From contig DATGFN010000015.1 of NCBI GenBank assembly GCA_035308965.1, positions 121,762 through 185,761 on the forward strand: 64,000 nucleotides of DNA. Reading direction: 5' to 3'. This DNA is from Terriglobia bacterium (GTDB taxonomy: Bacteria > Acidobacteriota > Terriglobia > UBA7540). This document shows positions 34,033-59,386 of the stretch, in pieces. Each line of letters starts with the position of its first letter. Positions within the stretch are counted from its first letter, which is position 1. The notes below the pieces were generated by a model that was not told where the DNA came from, did not search any database, and worked only from the letters and a program-made list of their open reading frames with translations. Position numbers and translations under genes: made by a program.

Positions 34033-34118
34033 AAAAACTCCTGGGCGCTCACCAGCGGCCAGGAGTTATCAGTCCGTCGGCTGACGGACGGTTATGGCGA
34101 ACTCCATCGCCTTGAAGC
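34027..34118 (-). promoter_or_regulatory. fluoride riboswitch (crcB RNA motif) with intrinsic-terminator expression platform
   Basis: Minus-strand RNA reads AGGCGAUGGAGUUCGCCAUAACCGUCC-GUCAGCCGAC-GGACUGAUAACUCCUGG. Conserved blocks are GGCGAUGG..UUCGCC, AAC(C)G.CC and CUGAUaaCUCCU, and they lie directly upstream of crcB. Confidence 0.8.
34031..34065 (-). terminator. intrinsic terminator (CUCCUGGCCGCUGGUGAGCGCCCAGGAG + U7) serving as the riboswitch OFF-state element
   Basis: 8-bp GC-rich stem followed by UUUUUUU on the minus strand. Its 5' half overlaps the riboswitch pseudoknot-forming CUCCU. Confidence 0.6.
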
Positions 34119-34229
34119 CCGCATTATACACAACACGACGCAGCCTTTAAAAATCATTCCTGGGGCGCGGCGCAAACTCTGGGCCGATTGAATTCCCACC
34201 ATGCGCTGCATTAAGATGGGGAGCATCTC

Positions 34230-40468: not shown

Positions 40469-40645
40469 GGGAGATCTTGCGCTGTTCGCGATGGTTTAAG
40501 TTCTAGGGGTGCTCCATCCCAAAGTCAAAGTCCATGTTTAAACCAGATTTCCGTCATAATGGAATCTTGAACCCCAAATAGTATGCTCAAATTGTGCTTG
40601 CCGAATACACTTCTTAATTTTGGTTAGAGTCCGAATTTGCATGAT

Positions 40646-40730
40646 TGGGAGCGCGGGCCGGGACCCCACGCAATGCTGTGGGGCTCGCCCGCAATCGCTT
40701 GATCATAAAAGAGCGGGCGAGACGCCCGCG
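40646..40730. repeat. GC-rich nested inverted-repeat structure (11-bp outer stem enclosing 6-bp and 9-bp hairpins)
   Basis: gggagcgcggg at 40646-56 pairs with cccgcgctccc at 40716-26. Inner hairpins are ccccac/gtgggg and ctcgcccgc/gcgggcgag. Read directly; it lies 27 bp outside the island's left terminal repeat. Confidence 0.5.
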
Positions 40731-40756
40731 CTCCCGGCCATCCAAATCCGGAAACT

Positions 40757-40791
40757 ACCGAAAATTCGGTAATGGGGTCTTATAGCTTGAA
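40757..40791. repeat. left terminal inverted repeat of the island
   Basis: ccgaaaattcggtaatGGGGTCTTATAGCTTGAA. Confidence 0.6.
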
Positions 40792-40839
40792 TAAGGTTTT
40801 ACTTCTTGCCATGATTAGAATGAGATGGCATCTAGAATG

Positions 40840-41016
40840 CTAGGGCTTTGGGCCTTTTCTGAACCCCTCTCCCAAATAGACGACTACAATTACCCAGACC
40901 ACTCCGCCGAGGACAGTAGAAATCCACCCACCGTGATCGATGAATGTGCTCTTAAAAGCGAATCTAGTAATCCCCGAGAGTATGAGCCACCAAAGTAAAC
41001 GATAATCCTCGTTCGT
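40840..41016 (-). CDS. small two-TM membrane protein (island cargo)
   Basis: MTNEDYRLLWWLILSGITRF...GGVVWVIVVVYLG. It starts 8 nt after the upstream gene's stop; the longer track ORF overlaps that gene. Confidence 0.3.
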   Translation of the reverse strand, partial: TNEDYRLLWWLILSGITRFAFKSTFIDHGGWISTVLGGVVWVIVVVYLGEGFRKGPKP

Positions 41017-41024
41017 CATCGGTC

Positions 41025-41486
41025 TTAAGGATGTTTCTTCCAAATTGAGACTAGTCCGATCAGGGCACCGATGATGCCTATTAGGGAAGCTAAAAAAGCG
41101 CCTAGCACCCCGATAACTTTCAGACGAAACTCCCAAATCTTTCGGCGCTCATCTTGAATTGCATGATAGAGCTTGAACTCAGAATGGTCGTCAAGGAATC
41201 TATTGCCCCATTGGTCATCGTGCCACTCCAAGCCCTCTACCCTGAGATGCAGTTTGCGCGCCCGCTTTGCCAGCTTGTTGGAGATTAGAGAATAAATAGC
41301 TCCGTCGTATTCGCTCATTTCAAATTCACGAGAGGCAAGGATCGCCTGTCGGGAATTCCAGTCCTTTGCAGCAGCTAAATCAGAATCAAAGGCCCTCTTA
41401 AGAACCGCTGCCTGTAGTGTGATAGCCCAGATTGGAAAGAATCTCTTAAAGCGTCCCAAGAGACGTAACTTTTTTGGCAAATCCAT
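41025..41486 (-). CDS. hypothetical protein with soluble N-domain and C-terminal TM anchor (island cargo)
   Basis: 153 aa with a C-terminal hydrophobic helix (VIGVLGAFLASLIGIIGALIGLVSIW). No recognisable family. Confidence 0.35.
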   Translation of the reverse strand: MDLPKKLRLLGRFKRFFPIWAITLQAAVLKRAFDSDLAAAKDWNSRQAILASREFEMSEYDGAIYSLISNKLAKRARKLHLRVEGLEWHDDQWGNRFLDDHSEFKLYHAIQDERRKIWEFRLKVIGVLGAFLASLIGIIGALIGLVSIWKKHP

Positions 41487-41541
41487 AATTTCACCGTATG
41501 TATTTCAGTTTACACTTGAACGTCTTGCTCTTCGGGTTATA

Positions 41542-41733
41542 ATGGCAGCGATGGAGCGGATATACAATTGTATTGCGTGCCACAAGGCGTTCAAGGTGAC
41601 GGGAATTAAGGAGCGCTCAGACGAGCCAGAGAAGCCGGACGTGCCGCTGAATGTTGTATGTCCATTTTGCGAAACCGCCAATGTAATTACTTGGCCCCAA
41701 GGGTCGAAGTACATTGTTGGTTTGCCGGGCTAA
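41542..41733 (+). CDS. small Cys4 zinc-ribbon protein (island cargo)
   Basis: MAAMERIYNCIACHKAF...VVCPFCETANV gives a CxxC...CxxC arrangement in 63 aa. Its stop is 2 nt before the next gene's ATG. Confidence 0.4.
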   Translation: MAAMERIYNCIACHKAFKVTGIKERSDEPEKPDVPLNVVCPFCETANVITWPQGSKYIVGLPG

Positions 41734-41735
41734 TT

Positions 41736-42047
41736 ATGCCACTTAACAAGGGCCAAGAGGTACAGATAATCAAGCCTGCCATTTACGGCACGGTTGGTGG
41801 ATTACGTGATCCCGACGAGAAGGATGAAATATACATCGTCACAATTAGCCAACAGACGGTCTATTGCCGACCTTCTGATGTAGAGGCTGTACAAGGCAGC
41901 CCAAAGCCGCAACCAACGATTGATTCAGAGTGGGCGAGATTGCTCGAAGCAGCAATCAAGTGGCGCGAGGACCCCCAGAATCCAGATCGAGAGAAAGAGT
42001 TGCGGGATTCAATGGAGAGAGTTGGTATTCTTCGCGGACCTATCTGA
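41736..42047 (+). CDS. hypothetical protein (island cargo)
   Basis: 103-aa ORF that appears translationally coupled to the zinc-ribbon ORF. No recognisable motif. Confidence 0.35.
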   Translation: MPLNKGQEVQIIKPAIYGTVGGLRDPDEKDEIYIVTISQQTVYCRPSDVEAVQGSPKPQPTIDSEWARLLEAAIKWREDPQNPDREKELRDSMERVGILRGPI

Positions 42048-42109
42048 AATGTTTCCTGGTGTCGTTTGACCCATCTATTTAATCTTCTCGGAGGAGAAGG
42101 GAACCAGCG

Positions 42110-42256
42110 ATGCTCCAGCTTAAACAAGAACTCGACAGTCTTAATCGCCTTTACGTGCAACGCATGATTGATAATTCTCAAAACGAGGAAAACCTACAGA
42201 GGTTGCGGGACGCGATTAACTCTATCGAACTACGAATAAAGAACGGTTCGGTGTAA
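42110..42256 (+). CDS. small coiled-coil protein of 48 aa (not in ORF track)
   Basis: Strong RBS ggaggagaagggaa lies 6 nt before the ATG at 42110. The protein MLQLKQELDSLNRLYVQRMIDNSQNEENLQRLRDAINSIELRIKNGSV is heptad-like. Confidence 0.3.
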   Translation: MLQLKQELDSLNRLYVQRMIDNSQNEENLQRLRDAINSIELRIKNGSV

Positions 42257-42418
42257 CCGCTCGGCGCCCTAACCCGCATTTTGAGACCCGCCTTCCCTGC
42301 GCGTCTCTCCCTCGGGCCGTGGCTAAAATCCACGATAAGGGAGAGGACTTAGAAATGTCAACAAAAAAAGGTCGCTTGCTTAACATCGATGCTACGAACA
42401 AACACGCAACAACTCTGT

Positions 42419-42634
42419 TTACGATTTCCCGAGGGCTTCGAGAATCTCCTTCACCGTATCGACTTGCAAAGCCACGGGGTCGATCTGGACGCCCAAAATC
42501 GTACGGCAAGAAGGGCACAGATAGCTTATCCCATTCCAACGGCCATTCAGTATCTTCTCAATGCTGATGGCTTCAACCTCGACGTGGGGTATCACGTCCT
42601 GGCAGTTTGGACACTTTCCAGTTGGAAAAGTCAT
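42419..42634 (-). CDS. small Cys4 zinc-ribbon protein (island cargo)
   Basis: GKCPNCQDV...YLCPSCRTIL gives CxxC...CxxC in 71 aa. Confidence 0.35.
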   Translation of the reverse strand: MTFPTGKCPNCQDVIPHVEVEAISIEKILNGRWNGISYLCPSCRTILGVQIDPVALQVDTVKEILEALGKS

Positions 42635-42697
42635 GAATATCTCCTTATGTGACGGGCGGGGATTGTATCGCTTACCCTCGCCCGTTGGAAGATAATT

Positions 42698-43663
42698 TCA
42701 TGCGGCCAGGGATACGGCTTGGCCCACTGATAGGAGTTCTTCAATCTCCCAAACGTGGTCTGTAACTCCTGCGGCCATTGCGGGCGTCACACGCAATGAG
42801 CCGTGGACGCGCACGAAATTGTAGTGGCTGAAATAAATCCACAGGGCCGCCGTTAGATTCTCGATCCGCTTTGAAAAGGCGTTAGTGAGCCTAGTCAACC
42901 GCCGCATGAATGTCCGACAGTTAAGGTTATTACGCTCTGCGTAACTCGTACTGATGTTTTCTAGCTCGGGCCGGCCCGAAACGGGTCTTGGTCGTGCCCC
43001 CGTAAGCTCCATGTACCCCTCATGCTCCGCATAACTCTTAATCAACATCCCGTAATCGGCTTCGGAGCCGAATGCCCGCTCCACTCCCCAAATATAGCTG
43101 CGTAGGCCGTCCGTGCTGATGTGCGGTCGCACTGCCAGACGTGAAGCTAGGTCTGTCATAAGTTGTTGTGCCGCTCTCAGGCCACGGTCGGGACTCACTA
43201 CAAAGTTGGGAACCAGCTTAGTGTCCGCATCGGTGACGAGGAATACCCAAGTATCCCCAAGGTGGTGGCCGTTGTGCTTATCCTCAAAGGTGCAGTTCTG
43301 TTCTTTCTTTCCGGTAAAGCACCATATCTCGTCGGCCTGGTAGTAGCGTGAGTGCAGATTCACGATTCGTTCATCCATGACGCGCTGGCATCGCTCGGCG
43401 GCGTGGAGCATGATGCGGGTAACGGTTTTCTTCTCCACGCCTACCAGCCGGGATGTGGCGCGGATCGAGACGCCTTCCACAAGGCAGTTGACGATCTGGA
43501 CGATTTTCTCCGGCGCGAGTTTCAGGCCGGAATAGCCGGTGAAGCGGCGTTCGGAAAAGAAGCGGTCACAATTCATGCAACGGTAAATCGTGTTGCAGGC
43601 GTGTCCGTTTGTTTGATGAGTTTTATAGCTTTCTAACTGACAGAACGGGCAATGAATTTGCAT
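42698..43663 (-). CDS. IS1-family (IS1/IS1595 superfamily) transposase, fused InsA-InsB type
   Basis: N-terminal zinc finger (CPFCQ...YRCMNCDRFF) and a DDE region with an IS1-like TDG..Y block (HISTDGLRSYIW). The C-terminus reads YNFVRVHGSLRVTPAMAAGVTDHVWEIEEL. Short inverted repeats flank it (tgacgggcgggg near 42650, ccccgccgtca near 43753). Confidence 0.65.
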   Translation of the reverse strand: MQIHCPFCQLESYKTHQTNGHACNTIYRCMNCDRFFSERRFTGYSGLKLAPEKIVQIVNCLVEGVSIRATSRLVGVEKKTVTRIMLHAAERCQRVMDERIVNLHSRYYQADEIWCFTGKKEQNCTFEDKHNGHHLGDTWVFLVTDADTKLVPNFVVSPDRGLRAAQQLMTDLASRLAVRPHISTDGLRSYIWGVERAFGSEADYGMLIKSYAEHEGYMELTGARPRPVSGRPELENISTSYAERNNLNCRTFMRRLTRLTNAFSKRIENLTAALWIYFSHYNFVRVHGSLRVTPAMAAGVTDHVWEIEELLSVGQAVSLAA

Positions 43664-43910
43664 GGGCTTCTCCTTGACTTTCGTCGCGGGAAGCCCAACA
43701 ATTTGGTTTGAGAGTCTAGGTGCGGGCTTCGTCCGCGCTTGGATTTAGCCCCGCCGTCAGTTAGCGCTGGCGACGGGGTTCTTGCTTTAAGCCTCCTTTC
43801 TTTGGTGGTTCTCTCGCTTTCTTCATACCGCCAACCATACATTACCGCTCAAGTATAAGTCAAGTCTTTTTTGCTTGCATTTTCTTGTACGGTCAAGTAT
43901 CATGTGAATT

Positions 43911-44087
43911 ATGAAGAAGCGGAAGAATCCGCACGCTCAAGCGTTAGGTCGCCTTGGCGGGCTCAAAGGCGGAAAGGCACGCGCCAAACTTCTTAGCCCC
44001 GAGAGGCGAACAGAGATCGCAAGGAACGCGGTCTTGGCACGATGGGGAAAGGTTAATAAAGATAGTGGTCGTCATGAAGCTTCCTGA
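43911..44087 (+). CDS. small basic protein of 58 aa with KGG-type motif (not in ORF track)
   Basis: MKKRKNPHAQALGRLGGLKGGKARAKLLSPERRTEIARNAVLARWGKV... Convergent with, and overlapping by about 35 nt, the 3' end of the HslV-like gene. Confidence 0.4.
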   Translation: MKKRKNPHAQALGRLGGLKGGKARAKLLSPERRTEIARNAVLARWGKVNKDSGRHEAS

Positions 44088-44841
44088 GTTCAGCCCGCAT
44101 CCTGGTCCATTTTCTTACGGTTTCCTTAAGCATGTCACCAAGGACATGCTCTGACTCGAATTCATCTAACTCCGCTGGAAGCATGAAGTCTTTAAAGTCT
44201 GCCGTGAAAGCATCAAAGTATTCTTCTACCTTCTTAATGTAGTGTTGCCTGAATCGAACCCTTCTGCCGTCGATTTGAATCCCAATAACTTCGGTGTCCC
44301 CTCCACAGTTTTGATCAAACTTTTTGGCTTGATGTATTCCGTACATGGCAAAGCACTCAGCTTCGATATGTGAGATCATCGGTGAGAAAATACCAGTGGC
44401 AAAGGCATTCGCCACTGGCGACCCTATCCCAATAAACTCGTAGGAGTGGACTTGGAGCGTAGTTCCTCGGGTGGTTTTTAGAAGCCGCATCTTCTTTTCT
44501 TTGGGTTCGCAAGCGGCAATTAAGAGGTCGTATTCAGGTTTGTCTTCCGCTTTACCGGGATGCTTGAACACATGCTTCCTATGGAATTTAAGGTTCTCGT
44601 CCTCGACAACTCTGGCAAGGTCGTCCAATGACGCAGCCCCCGGCAGGGAGCTATCAATCTTTTGGGCGATTGTTTTGATGAAGTCGCTGTCCCCTGCGCC
44701 GGCAATACTAACGGTTATCGAATCTCGATGATCCAGGTCGAAGAGTTTAGTTTTGTAGATTGGAATCCCGCCTGTAATGTGCAGGGTGTCGGCTGCCAGA
44801 ACGACACTCTCTTCCTGAAGGACGCCAGCGGCGATGGTCAT
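44053..44841 (-). CDS. HslV/proteasome beta-like Ntn-hydrolase peptidase with about 80-aa C-terminal helical extension (island cargo)
   Basis: Assuming the ATG at 44841 (RBS GGGAAAGG upstream), the mature N-terminus is TIAAGVLQEESVVLAADT, matching the HslV TTIV...V(V/I)AgD pattern with Thr1. IAGAGDSDF matches the AGxAGxxADaF block, and IGIGSPVANAF matches the GSGG.yA block. Confidence 0.55.
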   Translation of the reverse strand: MTIAAGVLQEESVVLAADTLHITGGIPIYKTKLFDLDHRDSITVSIAGAGDSDFIKTIAQKIDSSLPGAASLDDLARVVEDENLKFHRKHVFKHPGKAEDKPEYDLLIAACEPKEKKMRLLKTTRGTTLQVHSYEFIGIGSPVANAFATGIFSPMISHIEAECFAMYGIHQAKKFDQNCGGDTEVIGIQIDGRRVRFRQHYIKKVEEYFDAFTADFKDFMLPAELDEFESEHVLGDMLKETVRKWTRMRAELRKLHDDHYLY

Positions 44842-44993
44842 TTTCGCCTTTCCCTGCCTCTTGGGTGATGGACGGGGAGGATACTTCGGCCATCCGTGGA
44901 AGTCAAAGGTTCGTCGTCGAATTGGAATCGTCTGGATCGTCGCCATAAGGGTGTTATTCTCGGTCAGGGTTGGCTAAAATTCCTATTTTGAGT

Positions 44994-45027
44994 TTCAAGC
45001 TATAAGACCCCACGACCGAAAATTCCT
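44994..45027. repeat. right terminal inverted repeat of the island
   Basis: TTCAAGCTATAAGACCCCacgaccgaaaattcc. Confidence 0.6.
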
Positions 45028-55026: not shown

Positions 55027-56055
55027 ATGATTTCAAAACGCGGTAAGAACTTGGCCGCGATCGCTCTCTTGCTTGGGAGTTATTCAATCTGCAGCGCCCA
55101 GTCGCACGATCCGAAAAACCCCACGCCATTGGGGCCCGGCGTCAACAAGGGCAACGTCGACAACAAGGAAAATGGCCCGAATTATTACTACTTCTACGCA
55201 GGCCCGGGACACGTGGATTTGCATTATTCCTTCAAGGAAATGGGCGTCTTCGGGAATCCGATGCGGCAGTCGCTTAGTTTCGATCTTTATGGTGAGAGCA
55301 ACAACTTGATCATTCACAGCGCCATCGTTTCAGTGGAGAAGATGGAAAAGTTGTCCCAGCCCGGCGATTTAGGGTCACGGCATAAGCTGGTCCTTCGCGT
55401 CATTTCTCCGGAAACAACGCTCCGCTTGGGGGGCTATTACGAAATCGAAGTTACGGGGGCCGCGACGTTTGAAGGAAAAGCAACGGGCGCCAACACCAAA
55501 CCCGTAGACACGCAGCTCTATCATCCTTCCGGACCGTTAACGAAGCCGACTAATGATGGCAAGGGCGGGGAGTCCTCCGGCGGAGGAGTTTCGCTTTATA
55601 CCCCGCAAGGCTCTCTCTATCAGCCTGGAGTTTCTCTCTATACGCCGGTCGGCGCATTGACGAATGTGCAAGAAAGTCCCAAGCAATTGCGGCTGACGTT
55701 GGCCGCCGACATTCTGTTCGACTTTGACAAGGCAACTATACGTCCGGACGCCAAGGAGGCGCTCGACCGGGTTGCGGAGATCATCCGCTCCAAGAGCCGG
55801 GGAATCGTGAGCATCGAGGGTTTTACGGACTCCAAGGGCGCTGCGGATTACAACTTGCGCCTGTCCAACGCGCGCGCGGAATCGGTGGAGACATGGATGA
55901 TCGAGAATGAAGACTTGCATAGGGCGGGATTCACCACGCGGGGATTTGGGGCAACCCGGTTTGTCGCGCTCAATTCGAAACCGGATGGCAAGGATGATCC
56001 GGCAGGACGGCAGAAGAATCGCCGCGTCGAAATCATTATTCAGAAACAAGATTGA
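55027..56055 (+). CDS. OmpA-family lipoprotein/outer-membrane protein
   Basis: Signal peptide and a C-terminal OmpA_C domain (ILFDFDKATIRPDAKEALDRVAE...GFTDSKGAADYNLRLSNARAESV...NRRVEII). Confidence 0.8.
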   Translation: MISKRGKNLAAIALLLGSYSICSAQSHDPKNPTPLGPGVNKGNVDNKENGPNYYYFYAGPGHVDLHYSFKEMGVFGNPMRQSLSFDLYGESNNLIIHSAIVSVEKMEKLSQPGDLGSRHKLVLRVISPETTLRLGGYYEIEVTGAATFEGKATGANTKPVDTQLYHPSGPLTKPTNDGKGGESSGGGVSLYTPQGSLYQPGVSLYTPVGALTNVQESPKQLRLTLAADILFDFDKATIRPDAKEALDRVAEIIRSKSRGIVSIEGFTDSKGAADYNLRLSNARAESVETWMIENEDLHRAGFTTRGFGATRFVALNSKPDGKDDPAGRQKNRRVEIIIQKQD

Positions 56056-56098
56056 CGGCCCGAACCCATCGATGAAACTCTCAACAAAAGGAGCAATC

Positions 56099-56707
56099 AT
56101 GTTCTTCAAGAAAAACAGAGAAGCTGCAATTTTGCGAGTACTTGCCGGTGCGCTGGGAATATTCCTAGCGGCAGGCGCCGGAACTTTAGCTAAAGGCCGC
56201 TCTCCCGCATTGTTACCTGCGTGGATGTCCGGAGCTGCGGATCCGGGAGTTGATTCCGGCTGCCAGGCTGCACTGGACGCGGGCAACAAACTCTACACCA
56301 CCCCGTACCACATGTATGGGGCGGAAACCGTGAACGGAAAACCCGTGAACACCGAAGGGATTTTTGCCGGTGGCGCCCTATACGTTCTTGTCAACGGCAA
56401 GTGGTCCCTCAGCCCCGTTTCGCCGGAGGAAATGTTGAAGATGATGAAGGCGAAGGACCAGGGAAAGGAGAAAAATGGCAAGAACGGTGTGTGTCATTAT
56501 GTGCGCGATGAGTCAGTGAGTGGCGAAAGCGCGGCGCTCTACAGCACGCACGAAGAAGACGCAAAGGGAAAGACCGATGTCCAGAGCTGGGTTTCCAAGG
56601 GCAAAGGACTCCTCTTACGCCAGGAGACCGATGTCGACATGGGCGGAACAAAAGTCCACATCTCCTCCCGATTTGAATACAGCAACATACACGCGCCGAA
56701 ACTCTGA
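56099..56707 (+). CDS. secreted hypothetical protein
   Basis: Strong RBS aaaggag lies 7 nt before the ATG at 56099. A signal peptide (ILRVLAGALGIFLAAGAG) follows. The track ORF from 55907 overlaps the preceding gene. Confidence 0.45.
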   Translation: MFFKKNREAAILRVLAGALGIFLAAGAGTLAKGRSPALLPAWMSGAADPGVDSGCQAALDAGNKLYTTPYHMYGAETVNGKPVNTEGIFAGGALYVLVNGKWSLSPVSPEEMLKMMKAKDQGKEKNGKNGVCHYVRDESVSGESAALYSTHEEDAKGKTDVQSWVSKGKGLLLRQETDVDMGGTKVHISSRFEYSNIHAPKL

Positions 56708-56800
56708 AGAAACGGCTTCTTTTTGCTGACTCCAAAAAGGACAGGGGCATTTATCTTTCCGGTTATTCAGACTTCTACACTCCTGAAAAGATGAGGGTCT

Positions 56801-56834
56801 TGGTACGCCCGGAGAGATTCGAACTCCCGACCCC
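56801..56834 (-). other. tRNA 3'-end fragment (T-arm + acceptor 3' strand + ACCA), probable integrative-element attachment-site remnant
   Basis: Minus strand reads GGGGTC-GGGAG-TTCGAAT-CTCTC-CGGGCGT-A-CCA, a canonical T-stem/T-loop. No complementary 5' acceptor strand lies 70-90 nt upstream, so this is not a full tRNA. Confidence 0.5.
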
Positions 56835-57150
56835 TTGCTTCGTAGTTCAAAGAACATTGTATGCGGCAAACTGCAGGAATGGGAAGGAATACTGTTTCGC
56901 TCCTGTGTTCATGCGGGTCCAAGCGTACCTGAGATGATTTAGCGCAGCTTCTGCCGAATTCAGCAGATAGGCGCACACTGTGGAGAGTTAAGGGGGGTTA
57001 CGTCACAAAGCATGTCACAAAAATCGGCGATTCGTCAGCACCAGTTTCAACCTTGGAGGGGATGGACCTCTTGCAAGTGGCCGTACCGCCGAGGACTCCC
57101 ACCTGATTGATGCAATGGGTCATAAAGGATTTCTGGCCGGTCGCATAAGT

Positions 57151-57166
57151 TACTGCACATGTGCAG
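57151..57166. promoter_or_regulatory. 16-bp perfect palindrome ACTGCACATGTGCAGT upstream of an excisionase-type gene (candidate operator or recombination core)
   Basis: Read directly. It lies 78 bp upstream of the ATG at 57244 of the excisionase-family HTH gene. Confidence 0.4.
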
Positions 57167-57243
57167 TAGCTCCTGCAAGTCCCCTGTGGTACGAATGGTT
57201 GTGCCTGAATCAGGAAGTACGGAATTTTTCCATGTAGAGATCA

Positions 57244-57654
57244 ATGAATCCAAAACCTAATGAGATTCGATCGAGGGCGCGCCTAATATTGGCGGCCGAC
57301 AAATGGCGCCAATTAACGCAGCTATTACAAGAGGATGTCCCTAATTTGATTACGGAGGTAGAACGCCTGGAAGGGGAATTGGGCGAAATGAGCCGCGGAG
57401 CTCGAAGTAATCGATATGCGCCACCGGGGAGTGACGAATCTTCATATTGTGATCGCAGCAACAAGGAATTGTTAACCGTGAGGGACTTTGCGGGCCTGTT
57501 GGGCGTCACAGTAGCGTGCGTCCGGTCCTGGAGGCTCAAGCGAAAGATTAGCGCGGTCAAGTTGGGCCGCATAATTCGGATGCCACGGACTGAAGTCCAG
57601 CGGCTTATTGACGAGGGTATGAGTCCTGCGCGGCCCTTCCAGCAAGAGTTCTAA
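57244..57654 (+). CDS. excisionase-family helix-turn-helix DNA-binding protein
   Basis: The C-terminus (LLTVRDFAGLLGVTVACVRSWRLKRKISAVKLGRIIRMPRTEVQRLI) fits the excisionase-family HTH pattern. Confidence 0.6.
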   Translation: MNPKPNEIRSRARLILAADKWRQLTQLLQEDVPNLITEVERLEGELGEMSRGARSNRYAPPGSDESSYCDRSNKELLTVRDFAGLLGVTVACVRSWRLKRKISAVKLGRIIRMPRTEVQRLIDEGMSPARPFQQEF

Positions 57655-58435
57655 TGTCCAAGGGAACTACTCTTCAGTCCCGAAATCTCGGGCGCCGCGT
57701 TCAGAAATAAATTGGGACATGAAGTACCCAATGTCCAGTTGGCTGTATGGAGAATTCAACCAAACGCGCCCCAGATACGGTTTCTTGAGCGCATCCTCGG
57801 AGTGAAGTAATTTGCGGCCTTGACGGTTTTGTGCCCAAATTCACTACTGGCTGGGTCCAGGTCGATCTCTCCGATCTTCAGGAGATTTGTGGTTACTTTC
57901 TAATTGTCCTTTTCAGCCTGTTCGCGCCAAGCAGAGAGTTTTTCCTTAAATGCTTCCTTCGGGAGTTCGGCAAGGTTCTGCGCCCGAGAACTAAGGTCCT
58001 TGGAGATCCCAACCTGGGCTAAGGTCGGAATCTTTTCGGGCGGTCGTCGCACACGGCTGCCCGAAGGATCCTGCCCTTTTAACTGACCCCGAGTCCCCTT
58101 TGCCTTCGGCGATTCCTTTAGAAGCTCACCTAGCCTTCTTCCGGCTTAAATCCTGATAGCCGCAGCATCTATTTCGAGTTTTTTGTTTTTCGCCTCGCTT
58201 GCGTGGGCAAACAACCCCTCGGCTTTGTTGCGAATCATTTTGGTTTAATCGGCCAACTTTGCAAAAGCTATGGCTCGACAAACTGCATCATAACAAGCAA
58301 GAGGAGTCATAATTCCTCGCATTATTCGGCATTTGCGGCTTCCGTTCTTAGTTGGTGCTCCTTGCATCGCATAATTCATCTGGCGAGAATTTAGGCTTGA
58401 GAGCGGCTTATAAATGTGCTAAAAGTATTAGCGCA

Positions 58436-58669
58436 ATGCAGACCTACTCAACCAAACAGGCAGCAGCCCTCGCCGGGATTCATTGGGTGACGCTACACCG
58501 CTGGCTGAGGGACAAGAAGGTTAGGCCTTCCATCGCCATTCCGATAGATGGCCGAACGCTTTGGCGCTGGACTGCGGCTGATGTGAAGAGGGTTCGCAAA
58601 TACAAGACTGCCCACTATCGCAAAGGCAGAGGTCGCAAGAAGGCTCAAAAGAAAAGCGGCAACCGTTGA
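58436..58669 (+). CDS. AlpA/excisionase-type HTH protein (Xis-like)
   Basis: YSTKQAAALAGIHWVTLHRWLRDKKV...GRTLWRWTAADVKRV. It is small and basic, and sits immediately upstream of the recombinase. Confidence 0.55.
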   Translation: MQTYSTKQAAALAGIHWVTLHRWLRDKKVRPSIAIPIDGRTLWRWTAADVKRVRKYKTAHYRKGRGRKKAQKKSGNR

Positions 58670-58723
58670 AGCGTGAACTTCAACGGCTGCCTAACCACAC
58701 CCAAGCCACAGGGGGGCTTGAAT

Positions 58724-59386
58724 ATGGCTGTCAGAATCGTACCGCAAGCTGTACCATCTTCCAAAACCAGAAAAGAAATCTCGCGAGCTGCAATTTACGC
58801 CCGGGTCTCGACTTCAAACAACGGCCAGTCCCCAGAAATGCAATTGCGCGAACTTCGTGAGTTCTGCGAGCGCCGGGGCTGGTCGGTCGCCAAGAAGTAC
58901 GTGGATGTCGGAATTTCCGGTAGCAAGGAAGATCGAGTCGAACTGAACTGCCTCATGGCTGATGCACATCGCAGGCGATTTGATACGGTCATTGTTTGGA
59001 AATTTGACCGCTTCGCCCGGTCTGTTTCTCACTTGCTTCGCGCCCTCGAAACTTTCAAGGCCCTTGGGATCGAATTCGTCTCCCTCTCGGAACAAATGGA
59101 CACCAGCACGCCTGCCGGCAAGATGGTCTTCACTGTCCTCGGTGCCGTGGCGGAACTCGAACGCAGCTTGATTTGAGAAAGAGTCCGCGCCGGAACCCGT
59201 CACGCTCGCTTGAAAGGAAAGAAACTCGGACGACCGCGGGTCGCCGTGGACACTATCAGCGTGGCAGCTCTGCGCGCTCAGGGGCAAAGCTGGAAAGAAA
59301 TCTCCACGAAGTTAGGAATCGGCAGAGGGGACGCGCAGCGAGCCGCCGGCAGAATGGCGCAGGGCTGCGAAGCAACAACTCAATAA
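58724..59386 (+). pseudogene. serine recombinase (resolvase/invertase family) with in-frame TGA at 59174-59176
   Basis: Catalytic N-terminus (AAIYARVSTSNNGQS...) followed by ...AELERSLI-TGA-ERVRAG.... Resolvases are conserved as ERSLIRERxxAG, so a single CGA to TGA change explains the stop. A C-terminal HTH follows (SWKEISTKLGIGRGD). Confidence 0.65.

Follow-up and report, generated by a model that had tools for sequence, protein, structure and literature searches.

We analysed a 64,000-nucleotide stretch of a Terriglobia (Acidobacteriota) metagenome-assembled genome (assembly GCA_035308965.1, contig DATGFN010000015.1, forward-strand positions 121,762 to 185,761; hereafter, the window) and focused on a low-GC island at positions 40768-45017 within it. 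The island is very probably a single autonomous insertion sequence (IS) of the IS1 family that carries passenger genes between its ends, i.e., a 'transporter IS' (tIS). A preliminary description of this DNA had already seen here a transposable element delimited by inverted repeats and carrying uncharacterised cargo, and the repeats, a target-site duplication and the transposase gene between them bear this out. The insertion site is intergenic, with a BNR-repeat gene and a proline dehydrogenase gene as its neighbours. The element is of an ordinary kind, the IS1 family in its passenger-carrying form; what goes beyond routine is the picture of its wider family and the proteasome-like peptidase among its passengers.

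The boundaries of the element were read from a pair of repeats. The 18-mer GGGGTCTTATAGCTTGAA is found at 40774-40791 on the forward strand and at 44994-45011 on the reverse strand, 4.2 kb apart, and these are exactly two sites in 64 kb, with up to two mismatches allowed; the pair occurred in none of 100 dinucleotide-preserving shuffles. It had been reported before as present once per strand, and so it is. A repeat search extended the similarity to 32 nt (40760-40791 against 44994-45025, 88% complementary), in agreement with the preliminary description, but a reading of the bases resolves each arm into two components. The true inverted repeats are 24 bp long, GGTAATGGGGTCTTATAGCTTGAA at the left end and GGTCGTGGGGTCTTATAGCTTGAA (reverse complement) at the right, identical at 22 of the 24 positions. 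The outer 8 nt, both by eye and in the repeat search, form a perfect direct repeat, GAAAATTC, which is the 8-bp target-site duplication around the whole unit and answers the earlier suggestion that such a duplication be sought. These 8 nt had been mistaken for more inverted repeat because GAAAATTC is nearly self-complementary, and the near-palindromic tip reported previously is the duplication itself. The span first proposed, 40757-45027, was nearly exact but takes in the duplication; the element proper measures 4250 bp, and its tips read GGTAATG... and GGTCGTG..., i.e., GGTnnTG.

The GC content of the element is 50.1%, against 56.2% for the rest of the window, and no other 4.25-kb stretch is as low (z = -5.1, 205 equal-sized windows), which we count as a sign of foreign origin. 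The block between the repeats had been called the only AT-rich one; it does have the lowest GC, but it is AT-rich only in relative terms and is not the sole dip, as a second and milder one lies at 55-59 kb. Neither the repeat nor the GGTnnTGGGGTC tip recurs in the window above chance. No tRNA genes were detected in the window and no Rfam families inside the island, and family scans of the island proteins returned no integrase or phage genes.

Two further repeat-like features were observed near or within the element. Immediately to its left, at 40616-40766, is an imperfect inverted repeat of 43 nt with 79% complementarity and a 65-nt loop, which has no other copy in the window; the right arm reaches into the target-site duplication, a terminator-like GC hairpin is included, and one short-read assembly ends inside the repeat, at ~40723. 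Within the 5' end of the transposase gene, GTTTTATAGCTT at 43620-43631 matches the repeat core GTCTTATAGCTT at 11 of 12 bases. This match is probably due to chance, and an internal transposase-binding site is conceivable.

The element contains one transposase gene, the only one in the window. Its product combines an N-terminal zinc finger and helix-turn-helix (HTH), which are InsA-like, with an InsB-like DDE domain (D111, D185, E243) in a one-ORF (open reading frame) fusion, whereas classical IS1 relies on frameshifting to join these two parts. Four cysteines (C5, C8, C29 and C32) and the D111, D185 and E243 residues showed no variation across 32 relatives. PF03400 was matched by 30 of these 32 proteins and PF12759 (HTH_Tnp_IS1, the InsA C-terminal HTH) by six. 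When a profile of the clade was compared with the E. coli proteins using hhalign, residues 1-90 aligned with InsA (probability 95.9, E = 5e-9) and residues 109-274 with InsB (probability 96.6, E = 5e-10), the latter with the D, D and E residues in register in the blocks QADEIW/EMDEQW, TDG/TDG and ERNNLNCR/ERHNLNLR (clade/E. coli). NCBIfam models placed the window protein closer to IS1 than to IS1595 (E = 1e-15 vs 2e-6). Promoter-like sites, as consensus matches only, precede the transposase gene, the peptidase gene and a run of three small genes.

The element thus far resembles E. coli IS1 (IS1A of K-12, insA/insB) in several respects. Transposase homology covers the InsA-like and the InsB-like parts, and the ends of IS1A, GGTAATGACTCC... 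and GGTGATGCTGCC... (GGTAATG and GGTGATG), share the GGTnnTG start and a repeat length of ~23-24 bp. Target duplications of IS1 are 8-9 bp long, and that of the window element is 8 bp. The layout is different: IS1 has 768 bp and insA and insB only, with a -1 frameshift giving InsAB', whereas the 4250 bp of the window element hold one uninterrupted transposase ORF in the middle and about nine additional ORFs on both sides of it, all enclosed by the duplication together with the element's own ends. In the IS1 family of ISfinder, the subgroup ISMhu11 includes elements of up to ~4.6 kb; we found no paper that confirms this.

IS elements carrying passenger genes are a recognised class (PMC7986276; PMC9330008), and according to Siguier, Gagnevin & Chandler (2009), as cited in PMC7986276, tIS occur in several families, notably IS1595, a relative of IS1. 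The window element is like them in that one IS-type transposase and its own ends enclose genes unrelated to transposition, with the duplication flanking the whole unit, and differs from the IS1595-type tIS in having a transposase of the IS1 type. Passengers that are integral to the moving unit also characterise Tn3-family unit transposons with toxin-antitoxin genes (PMC9330008). The window element differs from these, as from Tn7-like transposons, in having no resolvase, res site or TnsABC-type machinery, and elements of its type are much smaller (2-5 kb), with IS-type ends and a transposase of another family and mechanism. Tn7-like transposons, too, carry defence cargo.

To place the element among its relatives, metagenome contigs were scanned, which yielded 80 loci with related transposases, and both element ends were found in 35 of them. 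All 35 start with GGT(A/G)(A/G)TG and are 2.1-5.2 kb long, compared with a transposase gene of ~0.95 kb. Perfect 8-bp duplications, mutually unrelated, flank 34 of the 35, as well as the elements L114, L116, L088 and L091. In total, GGTAGTG-type ends together with perfect 8-bp duplications were seen in 37 of 38 fully delimited relatives. The window element and L004, whose transposases are 79% identical, share GGTnnTGGGGTCTTATAGCTTGA ends, and relatives with transposase identities of no more than 49% have ends of the GGTAGTGGGTCAGTTTGAA, GGTAGTGGTGCAGTTTGAA or GGTAGTGACTCATTTTGA type. Because repeat type follows transposase lineage in this way, the outer repeats are best regarded as the lineage's own ends. 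The repeat is unique in the window, which shows that it is not a family of repetitive extragenic palindromes (REP), and it is found around related transposases elsewhere; the grounds for refutation named in the preliminary description thus do not refute a transposable element.

Three sister elements have the window repeat type and transposases 78-81% identical to that of the window, each at a different site: L004 (5206 bp, duplication CACTAACC), L114 (4128 bp, CATCATCT) and L116 (4769 bp, CCAGTCAG). DNA similarity between them and the window element was confined to the transposase region, and the cargo was different in each. Two other relatives, L046 and L073, shared 93% identity across 82% of their length, including the cargo, but differed in their duplications; cargo therefore moves with the IS in this family. 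One further sister was incomplete (L005, 1383-): its transposase is 79% identical, its end GGTAGTGGGGTATTTTGGCTTGA adjoins the 3' end of a 471-aa (amino acid) ORF, a different gene of 295 aa stands where the window has the peptidase, and the contig stops before the second repeat. The literature searched contained no account of this Acidobacteriota IS1-type clade, of its small basic accessory gene or of its defence-rich cargo.

Two other explanations of the island were weighed. The preliminary description had favoured a non-autonomous or composite transposon, with a small IS1-type IS nested inside it between short inverted repeats of its own and outer repeats that would serve another transposase. 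Such an arrangement would suit the mid-element position of the transposase gene, flanked by 1.35 kb and 1.9 kb, and the size of classical IS1, only ~0.77 kb. However, a dedicated search found no inverted repeat bracketing the transposase gene by itself, and this is the sole transposase gene, with no second IS copy; on these two grounds the island is neither nested nor composite. What flanks the cargo are 24-bp ends and not the two IS copies of a composite transposon. The outer repeats have IS1-type GGTnnTG tips and co-vary with the transposase lineage, and an intact cognate transposase lies between them, so that the island is not non-autonomous either and is unlike a miniature inverted-repeat transposable element, which has ends but no cognate transposase. 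The sister elements point the same way, with one repeat type, closely similar transposases and unrelated cargo, and the one-transposase layout is common to 38 related elements. We consider the nested or composite structure very improbable. An even smaller chance attaches to the idea that the island is no transposon at all, and is instead a chance inverted repeat, a REP-type repeat or a phage or integrase island. The repeat pair is present as a single copy in the window and a large imperfect hairpin lies just beyond the left end, as this idea would allow, but the 18-mer pair was never reproduced by shuffling, the repeat is nowhere else in the window, the tRNA, integrase and phage genes looked for were lacking, no relatives were found in viral contigs, and both the perfect duplication and a whole family of look-alike elements argue for transposition. 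Nine matches to the repeat core in viral contigs were set aside as chance, as the GGTnn tip and the transposase were both missing, and a phage origin was dismissed since the peptidase has no relatives in the viral contigs searched.

Several observations nevertheless weigh against a single, mobile IS1-family element. The window transposase falls short of curated cut-offs (20.2 vs 24.1 bits for PF03400, 58 vs 100 bits for NF033558), and for this reason its family placement draws on the profile comparisons and on the relatives. The element has four times the length of classical IS1 and no InsA/InsB frameshift, and 2 of the 24 positions differ between its terminal repeats. When the exact transposase and the flanking proline dehydrogenase were looked up, neither a second copy nor an empty site emerged; all four contigs with the exact transposase represent the same locus. 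With a single copy and no empty site, the case for the mobility of the window copy comes from the repeats and the duplication. Expression and activity of the transposase are predictions, and the functions proposed for the cargo are putative throughout.

If the element is an autonomous tIS, as we think very probable, its movement can be outlined by analogy with IS1. The transposase would recognise both 24-bp terminal repeats, GGT(nn)TGGGGTCTTATAGCTTGAA, through its InsA-like part, would cut at the GG ends and would join these ends to target DNA cleaved with an 8-bp stagger. All genes between the ends would travel with the element, and the cargo would be dispensable for the cut-and-join chemistry. 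An empty site would carry a single copy of GAAAATTC, with the joined flanks reading ...CTACCGAAAATTCCTCTAAC.... This copy may still be active.

The features of the element are listed in Table 1. All the genes named in the preliminary description were recovered, i.e., an IS1-type transposase, an HslV-like protein, Cys4 mini-proteins, a coupled pair, a 48-aa ORF, a membrane pair and a basic protein. In the orientation of the transposase gene, the order is end repeat, peptidase (+), small basic protein (-), transposase (+) and 71-aa zinc ribbon (+), followed by the 48-aa, 103-aa and 63-aa zinc-ribbon genes (-), the 153-aa and 59-aa membrane proteins (+) and the other end repeat.

Table 1 Features of the island, in window coordinates
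Feature	Position	Strand	Remarks
Target-site duplication, left copy GAAAATTC	40760..40767		Direct repeat, read from bases
Terminal inverted repeat GGTAATGGGGTCTTATAGCTTGAA, end distant from transposase start	40768..40791	+	Tip GGTnnTG; same type in L004, L114 and L116
Passenger ORF, 59 aa, two hydrophobic helices (by eye)	40840..41019	-	98-aa ORF trimmed to ATG at 41019
Passenger protein, 153 aa, C-terminal hydrophobic helix	41025..41486	-	Called by JGI, ENA and NCBI
Cys4 (CxxC...CxxC) zinc-ribbon mini-protein, 63 aa, leading the three-gene run	41542..41733	+	Weak zinc-finger Pfam matches
Passenger protein, 103 aa, coupled	41736..42047	+	Start 2 nt past the stop of the 63-aa gene
Helical, coiled-coil-like passenger ORF, 48 aa	42110..42256	+	Called by JGI and ENA
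Cys4 zinc-ribbon mini-protein, 71 aa	42419..42634	-	Immediately downstream of transposase gene; weak zinc-ribbon matches
IS1-family DDE transposase, 321 aa, single ORF	42698..43663	-	NCBIfam IS1 E = 1e-15; NCBI name 'IS1 family transposase'
Small basic protein, 58 aa	43911..44087	+	GRLGGLKGGKARA...IARxAxxARW motif; PHROG 2384 E = 5e-6, function unknown
Proteasome-beta/Anbu/HslV-like N-terminal-nucleophile peptidase, 262 aa, C-terminal helical extension	44053..44841	-
Terminal inverted repeat GGTCGTGGGGTCTTATAGCTTGAA (reverse complement), end close to peptidase gene	44994..45017	-
Target-site duplication, right copy GAAAATTC	45018..45025		Direct repeat, read from bases

The genes are tightly arranged. 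The small basic protein gene stands tail to tail with the peptidase gene, the spacers in the three-gene run (63, 103 and 48 aa) are 2 nt and 62 nt, with a promoter-like site TTGAAC-16-TATAAT at 41516-41543 by the 63-aa gene, and the 59-aa ORF, which is absent from the JGI gene calls, starts 5 nt past the stop of the 153-aa gene. A 70-aa ORF on the + strand that overlaps the 71-aa gene is probably not real. Searches of Pfam, NCBIfam, PADLOC and PHROG gave no family match for the 59-aa, 153-aa and 103-aa proteins, and the 48-aa ORF had no significant match in Pfam. Across all window cargo proteins, Pfam and NCBIfam returned no significant match, only sub-threshold zinc-ribbon and proteasome ones. 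At 90% identity, six of the eight cargo proteins looked up were recorded from this genome only, the 153-aa protein among the singletons, and the other two, the 58-aa basic protein and the 59-aa membrane ORF, had no exact match in the protein collection searched.

The small basic protein is widespread in the clade. Its homologues were found in 24 of 36 elements, where they are usually ~80 aa long and form the first gene inside one end, on the transposase strand; the window version is inverted and cut down to the conserved C-terminal motif. Even a 16-sequence profile of this family matched nothing in Pfam or the PDB. The protein had been described as a KGG-type mini-protein, which we could not uphold, as the best KGG (PF10685) match, in one relative out of 16, had E = 0.9, and the window protein had no such match. 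Its position, where IS1 has insA, suggests that it may have a DNA-binding accessory role.

The largest passenger of the window is the peptidase. The ORF first listed for it (297 aa) is over-extended, and the real start is M36, the second Met (MTIAAG...), as called by JGI. In the PDB, a five-sequence profile matched beta and alpha subunits of proteasomes, with a best E of 5e-8, and the protein itself matched PHROG 1040, 'peptidase HslV family' (E = 3e-5). A structure model from five sequences (pLDDT, the predicted local distance difference test, of 58.6) was discarded in favour of an AlphaFold2 model from a 60-sequence alignment, which had a pLDDT of 95.8 and a predicted template-modelling score (pTM) of 0.91. 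In Foldseek, the top matches of this model were archaeal 20S beta subunits (1j2q_H, 1pma; E = 3e-12), with a template-modelling score of ~0.84 on the target, and Anbu (5nyw), with 0.70-0.71 on the query, the latter covering most of the query including part of its C-terminal helices. The model indicates that the peptidase has the alpha-beta-beta-alpha N-terminal-nucleophile fold.

The catalytic set of this superfamily of N-terminal-nucleophile hydrolases (MEROPS T1) is in place in the peptidase, with Thr1, Asp17 and Lys31-33 (counted after Met) and conserved G-x-G and CGG motifs. T2, D18 and K32 were invariant in five sequences; among 60, D18 remained invariant, and T2 and K32 were conserved in at least 90%. 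The conserved residues suggest that the Met is removed and that the protein is catalytic. Proteasome beta, Anbu and HslV have the same fold, the conserved Asp17, a Lys at ~33 and the G-x-G/CGG motif, and in HslV, as here, the Thr immediately follows the start Met. The differences are an identity of only 13-23% to solved proteasome-type structures, ~60 extra helical residues at the C-terminus, and a Cys in the CGG motif that, by eye, replaces the Ser169-type residue of the proteasome. The window peptidase had no Pfam match at E <= 0.1 and hence did not reach the PF00227 threshold, and its relatives matched PF00227 only weakly or faintly. No gene for an AAA+ partner is present in the element. 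In a library clustered at 50% identity, the family comprises 1982 clusters at E <= 1e-10. Fuchs, Alva & Lupas (2021, PMC8665760) surveyed proteasome homologues and listed 22 uncharacterised subfamilies; a term search for transposase, transposon or insertion sequence in their paper had no hits.

The genomic context of the nearest relatives connects the peptidase with mobile elements. At 13 of 15 distinct loci, its gene is located in or next to an IS1 or IS1595 element or what remains of one. At 11 of the 15, it is inside or adjoining an IS1-type or IS1595-type element; the loci with an IS-linked peptidase include the window, the P0122 and P0124 contigs, L084, L085-L087, L088 and L091 (both with complete ends and duplications), L092, L095, and L089 and L090. 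One more (L096) has a decayed transposase remnant and a remnant of the basic protein, and another (L104) has only the basic protein near the peptidase. No IS was found near the homologue at the remaining two (L093, L094). IS1/IS1595 elements carry the peptidase as a recurrent passenger. L085-L087 have the gene order and orientations of the window, peptidase (+), basic protein (-) and transposase (+), with identities of 28, 57 and 40%, respectively. In L084, L088 and L091, the peptidase has a different position relative to the transposase, and this variation indicates that it is a favoured passenger rather than a fixed part of the machinery.

Some of these loci have features of their own. In L089 (7886-11015) and L090 (7894-10892), from Ca. 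Angelobacter and Terriglobia metagenome-assembled genomes, the homologues lie just within one end of elements of ~3 kb whose transposase is of the IS1595 type (DETYVGG motif, by eye). The ends of L089 are 28-bp perfect repeats, AACGGGATTATATACTTGACGAAGGTGT, the inner part of which resembles the window repeat; no clean duplication was seen. L096 (5001-6206) and L104 (5001-7169) carry more distant homologues that are widespread in metagenomes from peat and wood, with 103 and 53 indexed blocks of the contig collection, respectively. Both keep a remnant of the basic protein, L096 also a 23-aa transposase remnant, and neither has an intact IS; they look like fossil elements in which the peptidase has outlived the transposase. 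Lastly, a 224-aa cargo ORF (MTAIATAF...ADGRRT..., GIGGH motif) on the IS1-type element L011 (3488-4162, +) looks by eye like a more distant N-terminal-nucleophile/proteasome-like protein.

Small IS1-type elements of the clade often carry toxin-antitoxin and anti-phage genes. In a scan of 85 ORFs from the 35 related elements, each 100 aa or longer and not a transposase, Pfam matches included HTH_3 (ten), NYN (eight), Gp49 (five), DUF3467 (four), Abi_2 and ParA-like (two each), and single cases of Fic, SocA/Panacea, SieB, HicB, HigB, MT-A70 and M78. PADLOC matches were to HEC-09 (eight; best E = 4e-83), SoFic (1e-99), PD-T4-5 (two), PD-Lambda-2_B, AbiD, PDC-S04 and PDC-S24. The NYN genes that match the PADLOC candidate HEC-09 are located on L037, L044, L048, L055, L064, L065, L068, L080 and others. 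The 8-bp duplications differ among the eight HEC-09 elements, so these IS are spreading this single-gene candidate for defence.

With regard to the function of the window cargo, the likeliest reading, which we hold tentatively, is that it consists of small accessory modules of defence or addiction type like those of related elements. The peptidase, the membrane pair and the zinc-ribbon/103-aa/48-aa run could each be an anti-phage or toxin-antitoxin module spread by the IS. The preliminary description had likewise proposed a defence or toxin-antitoxin-like cargo, which receives indirect backing from the richness of the relatives in such genes and from the character of the window genes, which are small, tightly packed, low in GC and singletons at 90% identity. 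The window proteins themselves provide no match: all ten gave zero hits in PADLOC-DB 2.0 at E <= 0.1, and the cargo matched no toxin or antitoxin family in Pfam or NCBIfam. Nor did the cargo of the closest sisters match PADLOC, consisting of unannotated genes only, as in the window, and the neighbours of peptidase homologues outside IS yielded nothing in PADLOC beyond a weak match to an HNH nuclease. The argument is one of guilt by association, and we found no paper linking IS passenger genes to anti-phage defence in IS1 elements.

Alternatively, both the peptidase and the basic protein could belong to the biology of the element itself, by controlling the level or activity of the transposase or by forming a stabilising addiction module. 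The linkage of 13 of the 15 peptidase loci to IS would agree with this, as would the gene order shared with L085-L087 and, as a decayed remnant, with L096, and the frequent place of the basic protein at the insA position. On the other hand, most clade elements (L004-L083) have no peptidase at tblastn E < 0.01, with one distant candidate found by eye, the sisters L004, L114 and L116 have neither gene, the position and orientation of the peptidase relative to the transposase vary, and the homologues L093 and L094 have no IS nearby. The 15 loci are, moreover, the nearest relatives of the query, from a wider family of ~2000 clusters, and through this sampling bias they may derive from one IS-borne ancestor. 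We judge a role in element biology improbable. Only slightly less doubtful is a bolder proposal, in which the peptidase, possibly with the basic protein, would be a dedicated passenger of IS1/IS1595 elements in Acidobacteriota, acting as a new single-gene defence or addiction module or as a transposase-controlling protease, and the membrane pair and the zinc-ribbon/103-aa/48-aa run would be further unrecognised modules of defence type. If true, it would be the first case of a proteasome homologue with a functional link to a transposon.

Two observations concern other parts of the window. A fluoride riboswitch (Rfam RF01734; 44.7 bits against a gathering threshold of 34) is located at 34053-34120 (-) and is the sole Rfam family in the window. 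At 58673-59176 (+), a 167-aa ORF resembles, by eye, the N-terminal catalytic domain of serine recombinases (...YARVSTS...). It lies in a low-GC stretch at 56000-59000 (0.515-0.527, with 0.58-0.62 at 60-64 kb), which may be the edge of another mobile element.

For annotation, a 4.25-kb island of 'hypothetical proteins' resolves into one mobile element with exact boundaries. It belongs to a large clade of IS1-type elements in soil Acidobacteriota, which are 2-5 kb long instead of <1 kb and swap their cargo freely. Given how often they carry anti-phage or toxin-antitoxin genes, very small transposons can be vehicles for defence genes. The unannotated cargo of the clade, including the window peptidase, represents a short and well-delimited set of genes that are candidates for new functions in defence or addiction, and the peptidase family, with ~2000 clusters at 50% identity, gains a confident structural model and a genomic context.

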